Source: Promethearchaeota archaeon Loki_b32 (GTDB taxonomy: Archaea; Asgardarchaeota; Lokiarchaeia; Sigyniarchaeales; SOKP01). Taken from it: 64,000 bases of DNA. The stretch is from assembly GCA_005223125.1 (NCBI GenBank), contig NJBH01000008.1, forward strand, positions 1 through 64,000, in the 5' to 3' direction. Positions 144 through 58,088 of this stretch are shown here, in pieces. Under the pieces are notes generated by a model, which saw nothing but the letters and a program-made list of their open reading frames with translations, was not told where the DNA came from and made no database searches. The position numbers were made by a program, and so were the translations under genes. Numbering within the stretch: position 1 is the stretch's first letter; each line of letters begins with the position of its first letter.

Positions 144-1553
144 TCATACAAAAAAACCAACAATTATGTTACCCCAATCAATTCCGTGATAATAAAGAAA
201 TCTCCAAGTTGCATCCCACATACTGTATTTAATCATATAAGATTCGTAAGGTTTTAGATCTCTTAAACTTTCGACACCAAATTTTTCTTCAAATGTCCCC
301 CAGCTAAAGAAATAAATTCTTTTTTTATTGAAATGGCTACATATTGTTATGTCGGTAATCATTTCATTCCATTCATATCCACTTTTAAAACTTCCTAACA
401 TTACTTCGCCATCATAATAACTAATTGTATCATACATTTCAAAATCGGTAAATCTTCTATATCCTCCACCGGCAGAAATTCTATAATGCATAAAGATTTC
501 CAAATCCCAATTTAATTTCAAATGATATATGTTACCAAAAGCCGTGTCTATATAACATCCAAATTCTAAATTTTTAACAATTCCTATGGTTTTATCGTCT
601 TTATGAACTTCATTGATTAATTTTTGATATCCAAGTGTCGCATTTTCAATCTCTTTGATAGAAGGAAACCTACTTACTAAAAATGGAATAACCTCATACC
701 ATTCTAATTCAAGGAATTTGTCTATCGTGCTCATATATGCCTCGGCGTCAATATAAAATCCTGACAAATTGTTAAAAAAATCCAATGTTCTTACATAATA
801 ATAGGTTTCAAGTACACTTTGATGGTTGTCAATATTAGGAAAATCCATATACCCAGCAAGACTAAGATAAATTTTGACTTCATTATCTATTAAATTTTGA
901 ATTTCATCCTTATGGGTTTGATTGAAATCATCTATGTTTACCGGAATTATAAGATCAATATCTAATTCATTAAATATATCAATAGTTTCTTGTTTTGAAG
1001 GTATATTGTCAACTTTACACCAAAAGGTATATTTTGGATTCGTTTTACTATTTATTTTGATTGAAAATTCGTAAAATAGAAACGGAACTCCTATAAATAA
1101 CCAAACAAGATAAAATCCGATGATCCTTTTTTTCCATTTTTTCTCTAGAAATGTACTAGATAAAGAAACTATAAAAGGAAGGCAATAGACAGGTTGGAGT
1201 AAAAAAGCCTCAGGATAGAAATGTTGGCTTAGAGTAAGAAAGAATAAATATTCCAAATAAATTAAAAGTAGAAAGTTGAATAAAAAACCTAATTTGAAAA
1301 ATTTTCTCTTTTTATTTTCTTTTACTGATTTTGTTGGAAGGCGGGAAACTCCCACCATAGTAATAAAAAGGAATCCCGTAGTAATAATGATGATTGGAGT
1401 GACAATGAATACGGGAATACCTGGAATAAAATTCAAGATTAAAGCAATAGTACAAAAACTCGAAAATAAAAGAAAAAACAATCTTGCAAATGCGATCTTT
1501 TTCCAATCTTTCTCTAAGTCATCATGTTTTGATTTAGTCAGGTTATTCGTCAT
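144..1553 (-). CDS. Membrane protein (about 5 N-terminal TM helices) with a soluble, possibly glycoside-hydrolase-like TIM-barrel domain
   Basis: Hydrophobic N-terminal segments; 'GFYIDAE' strand-acid motif; start moved to ATG 1553 (GAGGT SD-like upstream) because the track start at 1646 runs into the RNA element. Confidence 0.6.
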   Translation of the reverse strand: MTNNLTKSKHDDLEKDWKKIAFARLFFLLFSSFCTIALILNFIPGIPVFIVTPIIIITTGFLFITMVGVSRLPTKSVKENKKRKFFKLGFLFNFLLLIYLEYLFFLTLSQHFYPEAFLLQPVYCLPFIVSLSSTFLEKKWKKRIIGFYLVWLFIGVPFLFYEFSIKINSKTNPKYTFWCKVDNIPSKQETIDIFNELDIDLIIPVNIDDFNQTHKDEIQNLIDNEVKIYLSLAGYMDFPNIDNHQSVLETYYYVRTLDFFNNLSGFYIDAEAYMSTIDKFLELEWYEVIPFLVSRFPSIKEIENATLGYQKLINEVHKDDKTIGIVKNLEFGCYIDTAFGNIYHLKLNWDLEIFMHYRISAGGGYRRFTDFEMYDTISYYDGEVMLGSFKSGYEWNEMITDITICSHFNKKRIYFFSWGTFEEKFGVESLRDLKPYESYMIKYSMWDATWRFLYYHGIDWGNIIVGFFV

Positions 1554-1610: not shown

Positions 1611-1730
1611 TAAAAGGTGGCTCCTGCCAACGAGACCTAAGTACAAGGTCGTAAATACAATAGGGGGAGGAGTAAATTAGAGCGTACCTACGTACACTAC
1701 CAAAAGACAAAAATCCAGGGTATAAGCAAT
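1611..1730 (-). ncRNA. Putative structured RNA element, copy 1
   Basis: Homologous to 56489-56614; 29-nt identical block 1693-1721; two hairpins with compensatory changes; mismatches become G-U pairs on the minus strand. Confidence 0.6.
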
Positions 1731-39347: not shown

Positions 39348-40553
39348 ATGATGATTGAAATTAAAATTGATTGGGATGGTCACATAAGGAAATATCAAGC
39401 AGCGATGGAAGATTTAAATTTAGATTTCTGTGTTCTTACTCGAGTAAAGTCTATAACCTATCTGACAGGATGTTTTGTTCCGTGGAAAAGCTATTTTTTT
39501 CTCCCAAAAGAGGGAATGGGAGAACCAGAATTATTTACGGTGCTCTTAGATGTGGAAAGAATCAGAGCAGAAGGCCATATGAAAAATATTAGTGGATGGG
39601 GTCCTCTCAAGGGATTCTATATAGAAAAGAAACTACAAAAAGCAGCTAAAAAAGCAGGGGTATATAATCCTAAAGGGTCTGCTCCCAAAATAGGGGTAGA
39701 ATTGGGATTAGATATTTGCGTAACTGGTCAGATGCTCTCATATACTGAAGCAGAATTGTTAAAGAACGTGTTTCCAGGATGTGAACTTGTTGATTTTAAT
39801 GATAAAACTGAAAGAATACAATTTATTAAAGAACCAGAAGAGATTGCTATGCTACGTAAAGCCAGTGAAATTACTGATATTGGACAACAGGTAGTGAAAA
39901 ATTCACTCTCGGAACGTCCCCAAGGAAAAGTATTCACAGAAAATGAAATAGCAGGAATTGGTACTTTAGCTATGAGAATAGCAGGCAGCAATTATGAATG
40001 GACTTTCACAGGAAATCAAGAAATCGGTTCAGGTTATCGAGCAAGCTGGACATTTAATGGATGCACACCAGCTACAAATAAAAAGGTAAAAGAAGGAGAA
40101 TCTTTACTTGTAGACTTGCATGCCGAATATGGATGTTATCTTGGAGATTTAAGTCATAATTATATTCTTGGAACATGTCCGTCTGAGCTTAAGAAATTCA
40201 ATGAAGTATATGAGCAATTATGCTATGCTCTAATTGACAATATGTATTTAGGAAATACATTCGATAATTGTTATCAAGAAGTACATAAAGTAGCTGAAAA
40301 AGCAGGATATCCTAATGATCTTTTTTTCGGTTTGGGACACGCTATAGGCATCATAGGAAATGAATCTTCGCCAGTTGTAGTCCCTGGTAAGGATTGGGGT
40401 CATTTAACATTCGAGGAAAATATGGTGGAAATTGCAGCAATAGTATTTAATCGCCCAGGACTTGGAGGACTTCGACTTGAGTCACCTACTCTTGTTACAA
40501 GTAAAGGTGCTGAAGTACTTCCCAAAACACCATTTGAAGTTGATTATTTATAG
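39348..40553 (+). CDS. Xaa-Pro peptidase / M24 family protein
   Basis: IKEPEEI, VDL...GDLS, GLGHAIG, GGLRLE. Confidence 0.85.
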   Translation: MMIEIKIDWDGHIRKYQAAMEDLNLDFCVLTRVKSITYLTGCFVPWKSYFFLPKEGMGEPELFTVLLDVERIRAEGHMKNISGWGPLKGFYIEKKLQKAAKKAGVYNPKGSAPKIGVELGLDICVTGQMLSYTEAELLKNVFPGCELVDFNDKTERIQFIKEPEEIAMLRKASEITDIGQQVVKNSLSERPQGKVFTENEIAGIGTLAMRIAGSNYEWTFTGNQEIGSGYRASWTFNGCTPATNKKVKEGESLLVDLHAEYGCYLGDLSHNYILGTCPSELKKFNEVYEQLCYALIDNMYLGNTFDNCYQEVHKVAEKAGYPNDLFFGLGHAIGIIGNESSPVVVPGKDWGHLTFEENMVEIAAIVFNRPGLGGLRLESPTLVTSKGAEVLPKTPFEVDYL

Positions 40554-54367: not shown

Positions 54368-56098
54368 TTATTCGATTGTTTTTAGCAATTCTTCGATTTC
54401 TGCCTGAATTTCTTCAGGTTTCCTTGCTGTTTGACCCGCAATAGCAAGCTGCCTTTCTATAATAGGTCTGTGAAGTGTGTTCATAGCGCAGAACGGAATC
54501 TCTCTTACTTTGCTGGGGTCTTCCGGATCGATGACTCCGTAGTGGACAAGACAGCGACACACTCTTTCGAGGTCGAAGTTGTAAGCATCTTGAAAATGCA
54601 TGCTAGATATCATTAAATTGCGATCATTAAAAAATTTCCCCGCAGATTTTAAGTTTGGAGCCATTACTAAACGAGCAAATGCTTGATATGTTTTACTTGT
54701 AAGAATTTTTTGTGGACTTTTAATATATCTTGCTGCTCCAGCAAAGAAATATGCCTTCATAATTTGCCGATAACCAAAACTGGTAATATCATCAACAAAG
54801 TTTCCAATTTTGGAAGCAAGCTGCCCAAAATCATCTAGGTTGATGCCTTTCAATAATCCAGTAGGTTTTGGGACTTCTTGTTTTTCAACCATATCCCAAG
54901 TTTGATTAGACCATCGAATCAATCCTTCAGCGTCAAAAAAGTTTTCGATGGGCTCCCACTCATCCTTATCATTAATAACGCATATCGTGGCGAATCCACA
55001 ATCTGCGTGGCTCGTCATACTGAAGGGTGGCATATCGTCAAACCAGGCTAGCAATTTTGTAAACTTCGCTGTGAATGCAATAGGGTAAAACTTGGTAACT
55101 GAACCATTTGTATATTTATTAATTGCGTCTTTTAAATCAGAAGTAGTATATCTAATATCCATTAATTCTTCGAAGCTAATACGTCCGGTTAATGAAACTG
55201 GTTGGAAGATAACACCTGATACGACATCACAATTATTTTTAGCAAAATTCAAAATGTTTCCAATTTCATGATCATTTACACCTTTAGCGATAACTGGGAC
55301 TAGCATAATGCCATAAAATCCAATCTTTCGAGCATTTTCAATAACTTTCTTTTTAAGAGGCCATAAGTTAACTCCTCTGATCTTTTTCCATGCTTCTGGG
55401 TCATCAGTAGCATCAAATTGCAGGTATAACGCATCCATTCCAGCATCTATGCATTTTTTCATAAATTCTTGTGATTTCCCAAATCGAACACCGTTGGTGG
55501 TTACCATGATTTCTGTAAAACCCAATTCATGTCCTTTTCGAATAATTTCTGGGAGATCATCTCTAACTGTAGGTTCTCCTCCAGATAGCTGGAGTAAAAC
55601 TGCGGGAATAGGTTCCATGGATCTGAAATGTTCCATAATTCGGATGAGTTCTTCGAATGTAGGTTCTACTACATAACCTTTTGCGCTTGCATTGGCAAAA
55701 CAAATAGGGCAAGCCAGATTACAGCGATTTGTGATATCAATTAAACAAATATTTGGAGCGCTTTTATGATTGGAGCATAAACCACAGTCATATGGACACC
55801 CCTTATTTACTTCTTTAATACCAGAAGATGTATATTCGGGTTGAGTAGAATTATTTACTGTTGAACCAATGTCGTCTGTAATAGTCTGTTGCCATTTATA
55901 TTCTTCGGGATTGATTGATAGTTTATCTTTGAATTCTCCATGGGCCTTACAGGTTTTTCGCATCATCACGCAATTAGTTTCAGGGTCTACGTAAATTTCA
56001 GCCGCGAGATGTTTCATACATTCAGGACAAATACTCGTAGTTGTTCGAATAATCTCAACATCTTTCCTTTGAGCAGATTGTGTTTCAAGTTCTGTCAT
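54368..56098 (-). CDS. tes: Radical SAM tetraether lipid synthase (Tes/GDGT-MAS, MJ0619 family)
   Basis: N-terminal CPEC...KTCKAHG, CPYDCGLC..H, CNLACPIC, GGEPT, C-terminal MHFQDAYNFD..RCLVHY..IPFC. Confidence 0.85.
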   Translation of the reverse strand: MTELETQSAQRKDVEIIRTTTSICPECMKHLAAEIYVDPETNCVMMRKTCKAHGEFKDKLSINPEEYKWQQTITDDIGSTVNNSTQPEYTSSGIKEVNKGCPYDCGLCSNHKSAPNICLIDITNRCNLACPICFANASAKGYVVEPTFEELIRIMEHFRSMEPIPAVLLQLSGGEPTVRDDLPEIIRKGHELGFTEIMVTTNGVRFGKSQEFMKKCIDAGMDALYLQFDATDDPEAWKKIRGVNLWPLKKKVIENARKIGFYGIMLVPVIAKGVNDHEIGNILNFAKNNCDVVSGVIFQPVSLTGRISFEELMDIRYTTSDLKDAINKYTNGSVTKFYPIAFTAKFTKLLAWFDDMPPFSMTSHADCGFATICVINDKDEWEPIENFFDAEGLIRWSNQTWDMVEKQEVPKPTGLLKGINLDDFGQLASKIGNFVDDITSFGYRQIMKAYFFAGAARYIKSPQKILTSKTYQAFARLVMAPNLKSAGKFFNDRNLMISSMHFQDAYNFDLERVCRCLVHYGVIDPEDPSKVREIPFCAMNTLHRPIIERQLAIAGQTARKPEEIQAEIEELLKTIE

Positions 56099-56488
56099 AT
56101 GAATCAATATCTTTTATCAATTTTTTAATTAGATAAATGTTTTATTGAATAATTATTTTGCTAATTAACCTTTCAAATCATTTAAATATTTTAATAATAT
56201 CTATAGTATTATCGATATTATTAAAAAAAACTCCTTATTTTAATAAAAATGATAATAATTTTTCTTATTTAATATAATTAAATAAATAAGATTACCATTA
56301 ACTTTAAATATGAAATTCTAATCAGCACTAAGAATGATTTTTGCATTAATATTTTATTTTTAACAAATCATCTTAATGAAATTTCAACGAAATAATTAAT
56401 TGAACCTTTTAATTATTTTACTAACTTTTTCAGGTTTTGATCTCTTGAATTTCTATACTAAAAATTGAAAATCTCAGAGCTAAGGACA

Positions 56489-56614
56489 TAAAAGGTGACT
56501 CCTGCCCTACGAGACGCAAAAAAGCGTCAAAACAAAATAGGGGGAGGAGGGCGAAATCAGAGTGTAAAAATTTACACTACCAAAAGACAAAAATCCAGGG
56601 TGTAGGCAGGAGTC
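56489..56614 (-). ncRNA. Putative structured RNA element, copy 2 (intact)
   Basis: 13-bp closing stem 56497-510/56602-614 with one bulge; hairpins 56513-28 and 56561-78; homologous to 1611-1730. Confidence 0.7.
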
Positions 56615-56868
56615 TTGTTATTTTTAGTTAATCTCCTTCGGTTTTTCTCTATTTTGTTTTATTTTTTATTTAATTAATTTTAGATTTTAAATATTTTGTG
56701 TGTTTCTTTATTGGTTTATCAGATTTAAATTCTTATCTTAACATTATTATATCATTAAGAGTTTATAAATAAAATCATTATAGTATGTAGGCATTGATAT
56801 GTATCTTTTATAGTTAAAAGAAAAGCTAAGATAAAAAAGATAATGATTATTCAATTAATGTAAATAGA

Positions 56869-57282
56869 ATGCATGGATCAATCATGTCGAGTAAAATTAA
56901 GGAACAAGCTGTAGGAAGACTGGAACCAGAATTTAAAATTGATGTTGGAACAATAATTTGGGTTGTTATAGGTTTTATTATATCCTGGGTAAACATGAAG
57001 ATCATTCTGGATTCTATGGAGATCTGGTCTTATCTTACCATAATTTTTACTACAATCATTCCTACAGTGATTATTGCATTAAAGAATAGATTTTGGGGGT
57101 ACGGTTATTTGATTGGATTTATGATTGCAGGAATTCCATTCTCTTTTTTTGATCCTCCTTATGGTGATTTATTTATTGGATGGTACACATTTGCTACTTC
57201 TTTTTTTATTTTCATTATTTTATGGCTTATCTTCTGGAAGACTTGGAGATCACTCTCATCAATTAAACAAGTGAATGTATAA
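56869..57282 (+). CDS. Small membrane protein (about 4 TM)
   Basis: Hydrophobic segments; the start may be the second Met. Confidence 0.75.
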   Translation: MHGSIMSSKIKEQAVGRLEPEFKIDVGTIIWVVIGFIISWVNMKIILDSMEIWSYLTIIFTTIIPTVIIALKNRFWGYGYLIGFMIAGIPFSFFDPPYGDLFIGWYTFATSFFIFIILWLIFWKTWRSLSSIKQVNV

Positions 57283-57614: not shown

Positions 57615-58088
57615 TTATTCCTTTAGAGTAGGGATATCTTCGATTACAACACTAATGACATTTGCAACAGAGAGGAATTTATCCTTAATTTTTTCTACTG
57701 TTAATTCACCAGAATCAACCAGATCTCCAATAAGGTAAGTCTCATAGAAGCATTTTTCCATTTCATAACATAATCCCGTAGTATGTAATATCTCTTTGCT
57801 TAAATTTAGTTCATTTAATACGTTAGATATCCCTTTGACCAGATCTGGAGAAAATTCTTTTAATTTTACAAGAATTTTTTTGATATTTTCCTTTTTAGTT
57901 GGAAAACAGCTTATTTTAACAACATCTTCACGAGAAATGAAAATTAATAAATAATAAGGCGAATTCAATATTTCTTCCTTAATTTCTGAAGGAAAAATGG
58001 GATTTTTATTAAGTTCATTATTGTCTATAATAAGTCCTATAGAAATTTTATTTTTTTGAGCAATATTGTCTGTTTCCATAATAATCAA
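57615..58088 (-). CDS. Hypothetical protein with ACT-like C-terminal domain
   Basis: Strand-helix-strand-strand-helix-strand pattern, 'ILHTTGLC'. Confidence 0.55.
   Translation of the reverse strand: MIIMETDNIAQKNKISIGLIIDNNELNKNPIFPSEIKEEILNSPYYLLIFISREDVVKISCFPTKKENIKKILVKLKEFSPDLVKGISNVLNELNLSKEILHTTGLCYEMEKCFYETYLIGDLVDSGELTVEKIKDKFLSVANVISVVIEDIPTLKE

Follow-up and report, generated by a model that had tools for sequence, protein, structure and literature searches.

An uncatalogued structured RNA family of Lokiarchaeia with a near-invariant U-box and a predicted complementary leader

The 64-kb stretch of Loki_b32 DNA analysed here (the window) carries on its minus strand an RNA element without a catalogue entry, and there is very little doubt that this element represents a real structured RNA family. 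As its neighbours vary in both identity and orientation, we consider a stand-alone gene for a trans-acting RNA, rather than a riboswitch of the adjacent tes gene or a MITE, to be the probable reading. The first-pass annotation of the window had proposed a minus-strand structured RNA under selection, from a family that it did not recognize. This proposal holds: the element displays covariation, conservation above that of coding genes and coverage by contigs from an RNA library, and Rfam 15 yielded no covariance-model match, at gathering or loose thresholds, for the window and eight divergent loci. The same annotation had described the element as present twice; the genome contains seven copies, two of them truncated, and only two of the seven lie within the window.

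Distribution and core fold of the RNA family

BLAST searches detected the element in 24 of 24 genomes of the genus, and the search of Asgard genomes with a covariance model, which the first-pass annotation had suggested, was positive for 123 of the 131 genomes of the Lokiarchaeia family, with 1–18 copies per genome and a gene context that varies in neighbour identity and orientation. Divergent homologues were recovered from a sister family with a retrained model, including matches outside the training set in G032 (E = 2e-9) and G039 (E = 7e-7); these retain the terminal stem, the box AU4GUCU5GG, hairpin P2, the motif UGAU(U)U(C/A), hairpin P3 and the pyrimidine tail. Two of the genomes with homologues consist of a single contig each: G032, at 4.4 Mb with two 16S matches, and G055, at 6.0 Mb with three. 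Model searches did not find the RNA in five genomes from two other families of the same order and yielded no convincing homologue in 123 other Asgard genomes; phylum-wide matches beyond the order, with E-values of 8e-5 to 7e-3, lacked the family architecture and were rejected. Records labelled Hod-, Odin- and Hermodarchaeota match contigs of family-f1 genomes where checked (L160, L185, L187) and, therefore, are not evidence of wider spread. Model matches in an IMG/VR contig of 225 kb (L266:1-135, E = 4e-9) and in a Patescibacteria-labelled record (L223, E = 3e-21 and 1e-10) are probably Lokiarchaeial DNA, either misbinned or proviral.

The element did not qualify for any known family tested, and we describe it as a new one that may work in the manner of Sm/Hfq-bound small RNAs. 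The 5S rRNA, SRP RNA and RNase P RNA were each located elsewhere in the genome, and the alignments contain no conserved C/D boxes, 3' ACA box or K-turn that would identify a C/D or H/ACA guide RNA. A small peptide gene starting at the ATG before P1 was likewise rejected because the frame is not kept: this ATG is spread over three frames (70/49/28) and is missing in 55 of 202 copies. Within the partial coverage of the literature search, neither this family nor any other structured RNA class specific to an Asgard lineage came up. In G000, the SRP RNA gene and another copy of the RNA are located 2.7 kb apart (G000:C64:37341-37643 and 40339-40474).

The core, as read from folding and covariation, consists of three helices (all coordinates below refer to the minus strand unless noted otherwise). 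The closing stem P1, formed by a 5' arm at 56602..56614 and a 3' arm at 56497..56510, comprises 13 bp with one bulge and encloses a loop that contains the U-box, P2 (56561..56578, immediately 3' of the U-box), the pyrimidine linker and P3 (56513..56528, missing in one genus). The closing stem had been noticed in the first-pass annotation, as had the 5' block shared by the two copies in the window, both hairpins with their compensatory changes and a 29-nt identical block, and each of these features was found where it had been placed. On the minus strand, the 56.5-kb copy folds with a z-score of -5.67, and none of 200 shuffles was as good. Absence of transcription together with absence of covariation in a larger alignment had been named as grounds for abandoning the RNA interpretation; in the model-fitted alignment of 42 diverse sequences, 92.9% of cells are paired and all 22 pairs show double-sided changes, and in that of 66 sequences the corresponding values are 95.0% and 19 of 22 pairs. 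In P1, 10 out of 10 modelled pairs are changed on both sides. The observed pairing was reached by none of 500 shuffles, and slid controls gave 34–49%. Fitted alignments lean towards the model, and the counter-check was independent folding of 30 divergent copies, which recovered the fold in most of them from entirely different stem sequences; some of these copies have extra hairpins or have lost P3, and the U-box is retained. In copies L021, L120-L122 and L138, the additional hairpins are inside the pyrimidine linker, which thus tolerates insertions. Among 14 syntenic tes-locus orthologues from as many species, identity reaches 95.4% in the core, compared to 83.6% in tes, 75.6% in the divergent membrane gene and 54–60% in the spacers. 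The helices weakly favour the minus strand (57 G-U versus 35 A-C counts); the best evidence for this strand is the wobble pattern of the predicted leader against the U-box, described below.

The two copies in the window had been treated as equivalents, which they are not. The paralogue at 1611..1730 (-) has lost the 5' arm of P1 and the upstream motif (anti-box), and its orthologue in G132 has additional deletions that affect the box and hairpin P2, all of which indicates that this copy is decaying; as the 5' arm of the closing stem is gone, it folds poorly (z-score of -1.47). The orphan gene that adjoins it (144-1553, minus strand) is present in one of 53 other genomes of the genus.

Genomic context and expression

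The main copy is situated upstream of a tes-like radical SAM gene (54368-56107, minus strand), whose product matches the tetraether lipid synthase model NF045702 with 439.6 bits, against a cut-off of 450; a Tes-like paralogue of about 44% identity is encoded on contig C24. On the other side lie genes for a small membrane protein (56869-57282, plus strand) and a 157-aa protein of no known family (57615-58088, minus strand); for both, synteny with the RNA extends to about 60 loci across genera. Three loci are stable across the genus, namely those at tes, at a Hel308-like helicase gene and at a dehydrogenase gene, and the others are sporadic; no partner gene is conserved across loci. Several of the sporadic copies (L043, L054, L069, L070) are directly followed by a gene for an 82-aa protein of no known family.

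The first-pass annotation had left open whether the element is a small RNA family or a cis-element, and the former fits better. A cis-acting attenuator or riboswitch, in which pairing between leader and box would switch termination and thereby control read-through into the downstream gene (tes in the present case), might be suspected from the terminator-like tracts with alternative pairings, from the fact that tes is linked to the RNA at about 60 loci across genera and from the orientation of the downstream gene, which shares the strand of the RNA for 126 of 185 copies. We regard it as very unlikely: the remaining 59 copies face a convergent gene, and include an entire orthologue group as well as a syntenic sister-family copy that is antisense to both of its neighbours; apart from tes, the neighbours are functionally unrelated, and the RNA is not consistently 5' of related same-strand genes. 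Moreover, tes has a conserved upstream block of its own (56120-56260, 61–86% conserved), which is immediately upstream of the gene, is probably the tes promoter or leader and is separated from the RNA by a gap of about 200 nt that is only 22–42% conserved. A non-autonomous mobile element, either MITE-like or an orphan transposon guide RNA, with some copies domesticated, is similarly hard to credit. It would account for the copy number of 1–18, for the truncated copies and for the situation in G128, where recent dispersed duplicates, tandem pairs and direct-repeat copies around accessory genes are found. It would also be in line with the invariant loop matching upstream DNA and the variable loop matching the flank, which recall bridge RNAs. 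Against it, the identity of 88–95% between G128 duplicates at unrelated loci begins at the TATA box (70–125 nt upstream) and stops at the tail. The unit that was duplicated thus extends from the promoter to the tail, reaches 70–125 nt past P1 on one side and has no terminal inverted repeat; in addition, the closing stem differs in sequence from copy to copy, unlike a transposase site that would be kept, and the main copy is conserved above coding genes. No cognate transposase or nuclease gene was found beside any copy, and IS110 and reverse transcriptase genes were not detected in this genome; TnpB was not found in the two genomes richest in copies and is here encoded on other contigs. Flanks were also inspected for target-site duplications, as had been proposed, and none was seen by eye around the G128 duplicates; the empty-site search for the first copy in the window returned the locus in one relative only, where the element is present as well. 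Within G128, near-identical copies in direct repeat (L346, L347, L348; C22 and C37) flank accessory genes in a gene-cassette-like manner, tandem pairs spaced by 288–291 bp occur on C14 as a duplicated unit of 870 bp, and one reverse transcriptase fragment is located about 6 kb from two copies.

For the stand-alone gene, we infer a transcript of about 250 nt that would start near 56740 on the minus strand, as judged from the spacing to the TATA box, and end at the tail near 56489. In the marine-sediment RNA-seq library X2, short contigs of several paralogues are confined to 56530-56598, with a summed depth of 44 on this segment against about 2 on tes, the spacers being uncovered. Depth here is a sum across organisms, the run was picked up by means of this very stretch, and DNA carry-over is possible; these contigs, which cannot show strand or transcript ends, are a hint of expression only. 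Runs X1 and X3 were set aside as they may be DNA.

U-box, linker and predicted leader

The most conserved part of the RNA is the U-box (56580..56600), a near-invariant GGAU5GUCU4GG that resembles an Sm site and at the same time forms a double U4-tract. It accounts for 14 invariant columns among 46 aligned sequences and is retained in nine further genera despite fully rewritten helices; in the sister family, the order of the tracts is 4+5 rather than 5+4. The later set of loci was selected by exact box matches, which inflates box invariance in that set, and the 46-sequence alignment and the copies from divergent genera are the fairer samples. There is no covariation within the U-box, which P2 directly adjoins, and pairing with the leader or into a weak, invariant G-U-rich hairpin is possible. 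Pairing targets for the U-box in rRNA, SRP RNA or RNase P RNA were no better than those of shuffles.

On the 3' side of P2, box 2 and a pyrimidine tract (UGAUUUC plus CCCUCCUC, 56544..56559) make up an anti-Shine-Dalgarno-like segment that differs among paralogue types, followed by a U-rich linker predicted to pair with the leader (56529..56540). The pyrimidine arm complements Shine-Dalgarno motifs, and such motifs are in use in this genome. In the sister family, the anti-Shine-Dalgarno tract forms part of a hairpin, and several paralogue types lack it; many paralogue linkers match neither Shine-Dalgarno motifs nor the 16S decoding strand well; no targets of linker-type pairing were found in SRP, RNase P or 23S RNA. 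A pyrimidine/U tail at 56489..56496, conserved in the alignments, is the probable 3' end, and it is here that recent duplicates diverge.

Absent from the first-pass description are a putative TATA box about 150 nt upstream of the core and a predicted 5' leader complementary to both the U-box and the linker. An unseeded EM motif search of the upstream regions returned, as its top motif, AAGRYRRRRATT, which is the wobble complement of the U-box. This anti-box (56727..56740) could form 12–13 bp with the U-box, and its degeneracy is that of wobble pairing: only purines alternate at positions facing U and only pyrimidines at those facing G, and the positions facing C and A do not vary. A U-box helix of at least 12 nt is possible in 43% of upstream regions compared to 1.5–6% of controls, and 44% of copies, as opposed to 2% of controls, score at least 11 bits with a matrix trained on these same copies; as the copies are related, these and the other leader-pairing percentages are not independent counts. 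Only about half of the copies have a clear anti-box, at a distance from the U-box that ranges from about 40 to 170 nt, and for the sister family its presence is not established. It is not a general promoter element, given that it shows no enrichment before protein genes. Among 52 dereplicated upstream regions, TATA-like matches peak at positions -30 to -26 from the anti-box (33, versus 2–14 in other bins), and because of this clustering the anti-box is placed at the predicted 5' end of the primary transcript. The peak appears only on anchoring at the anti-box, and no TATA box was found at a fixed distance from P1. In the main copy, the putative TATA box (TTTATAAA, 56762..56769) coincides with a conservation peak of 77–88%; its sequence is palindromic, so that it could also serve the divergent gene.

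Between the anti-box and P1, the leader is AU-rich and weakly conserved (56615..56726), its length being about 25–150 nt among copies, and contains an anti-linker (56649..56660) that is a perfect 12-nt complement of the linker at 56529-56540. Complements of the linker of at least 10 nt are present in the copy's own leader in 21% of 192 related copies, compared with 0.5% further upstream or downstream and 2–5% in the leaders of other copies, and the anti-linker covaries with the linker between loci. The 56.5-kb copy possesses both the anti-box and the anti-linker.

Proposed function and comparison with known RNAs

The fullest model we can offer, tentatively and at somewhat less than even probability, is that of a leader-masked, Sm/Lsm-bound, trans-acting antisense regulator of translation. 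During transcription, the A-rich 5' end would pair with the U-box as the latter emerges and the anti-linker with the second U-tract, both leader helices crossing P1. Such masking would conceal from aCPSF1, a nuclease that reads U-tracts, two strong termination signals within the RNA and allow the full RNA to be made; the leader is read as a mask on the reasoning that an RNA which retains a terminator-like box must hide it during synthesis. A pair of U4-tracts is the smallest site that aCPSF1 binds, and tracts of this kind are read by its Lokiarchaeal orthologue (PMC8716108). Once the leader has been trimmed or displaced, the U-box would receive a U-binding protein, for which an Sm/Lsm ring is the likeliest candidate. 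The pyrimidine linker could then base-pair with purine-rich translation signals, whether Shine-Dalgarno motifs or the decoding strand of 16S rRNA, and this pairing arm would differ between paralogues, in the style of Sm/Hfq-chaperoned antisense RNAs. Archaeal Sm rings bind U-rich RNA (PMC3710371), and three Lsm genes are encoded in this genome (3–4 per genome in the order); the co-occurrence of Lsm paralogues is not discriminating, as Lsm is equally present in families in which the RNA was not found.

The pairing arm could alternatively be directed at the ribosome itself, with box 2 and the linker pairing with the 3' strand of 16S helix 44 (h44) at the decoding site. For the 56.5-kb copy, 14 of 15 positions pair; the h44 site is the single best match in 16S plus 23S rRNA for 34% of linkers versus 3.8% of shuffles (17% versus 2.4% after dereplication), linkers of two other genera, which differ in sequence, match this site as well, and UGAUUUC is maintained in the sister family. 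Nevertheless, the site was picked out by eye, its purine-rich strand matches any anti-Shine-Dalgarno-like tract, the rRNA strand is invariant and so offers no covariation, and the preference comes from only about three independent linker types, most dereplicated types having none. We regard such a ribosome-directed RNA, which would either assist ribosome assembly as a chaperone or silence ribosomes in these slow-growing cells, as unlikely. Two 16S-like 3' ends were observed: one near 148750 of G000:C48 has a normal anti-Shine-Dalgarno sequence, and the other, near 32800 of C68, is divergent and lacks it; the latter contig carries 23S and 5S genes and might represent a second rRNA type, a relic or contamination. 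It is also conceivable, if decidedly unlikely, that the double U4-tract is a decoy that titrates aCPSF1 and tunes read-through genome-wide, the leader being an on/off mask. Both families hold exactly two tracts of at least four U (5+4 and 4+5), as does the published minimal site, and the aCPSF1 gene is present in the genome. Recognition of U-tracts is loose, however, and would not explain the invariance of the flanking GGA, GUC and GG, and the variable linker is left without a role; we know of no nuclease-decoy RNA of this type.

Returning to the Sm/Lsm-bound regulator, the Loki RNA shares with the Sm-class snRNAs (U1, U2, U4, U5 and U7) a putatively single-stranded AU4-5G tract beside a stem-loop, a multi-copy gene organization and a second single strand that potentially guides pairing. 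The Sm site consensus is PuAU4-6GPu (PMC3710371), to which GAU5GU here and UAU4GU in the sister family are near matches, one base off in that they end in GU rather than in G followed by a purine. The Loki box further differs in its second U-tract, its position within a P1-closed loop and the predicted masking by the leader, and the RNA has no Rfam similarity to snRNAs. Whether these RNAs constitute dedicated Loki-type Sm-core RNPs, with a near-canonical Sm site, an Lsm ring, a self-masking leader and exchangeable guide arms, is rather doubtful; if they do, the snRNP design would have a counterpart in archaea that is independent of introns. Archaeal Sm-like proteins are poorly characterized (PMC9887622), and a near-universal RNA with an invariant Sm-like box provides a concrete substrate for the question of whether Asgard Lsm proteins form snRNP-like cores. 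The leader, in turn, suggests a testable answer to how an archaeal RNA may retain internal U-tracts without being terminated.

Antisense small RNAs bound by archaeal Lsm or bacterial Hfq, a comparison set that includes the C-rich anti-Shine-Dalgarno RNAs RsaE/RoxS, have in common with it a U-rich site, a pyrimidine-rich arm and, probably, intergenic stand-alone genes, but the Loki RNA is conserved far more deeply (two families) and possesses an invariant box of 15–20 nt, a closed three-helix fold and a predicted complementary leader. Y RNAs and vault RNAs, which are about 100–120 nt long with paired ends, pyrimidine-rich loops and a U tail, resemble it in all these respects; in contrast to them, the Loki RNA has a terminal stem of non-conserved sequence and no Rfam match, and the Y RNA assignment was rejected as no TROVE/Ro60 gene was found in the genome, which is 95.5% complete. 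The dispersed recent copies and flank-complementary loops recall IS110 bridge RNAs, TnpB omega RNAs and MITEs, from which the Loki RNA is set apart by its promoter-to-tail unit, strong conservation in place and the lack of an adjoining enzyme gene. The Dictyostelium Class I RNAs, a lineage-restricted multi-gene family with a conserved structure, a conserved motif and an upstream element (PMC7919456), display the same family traits, a eukaryotic analogy in which no sequence relation is expected.
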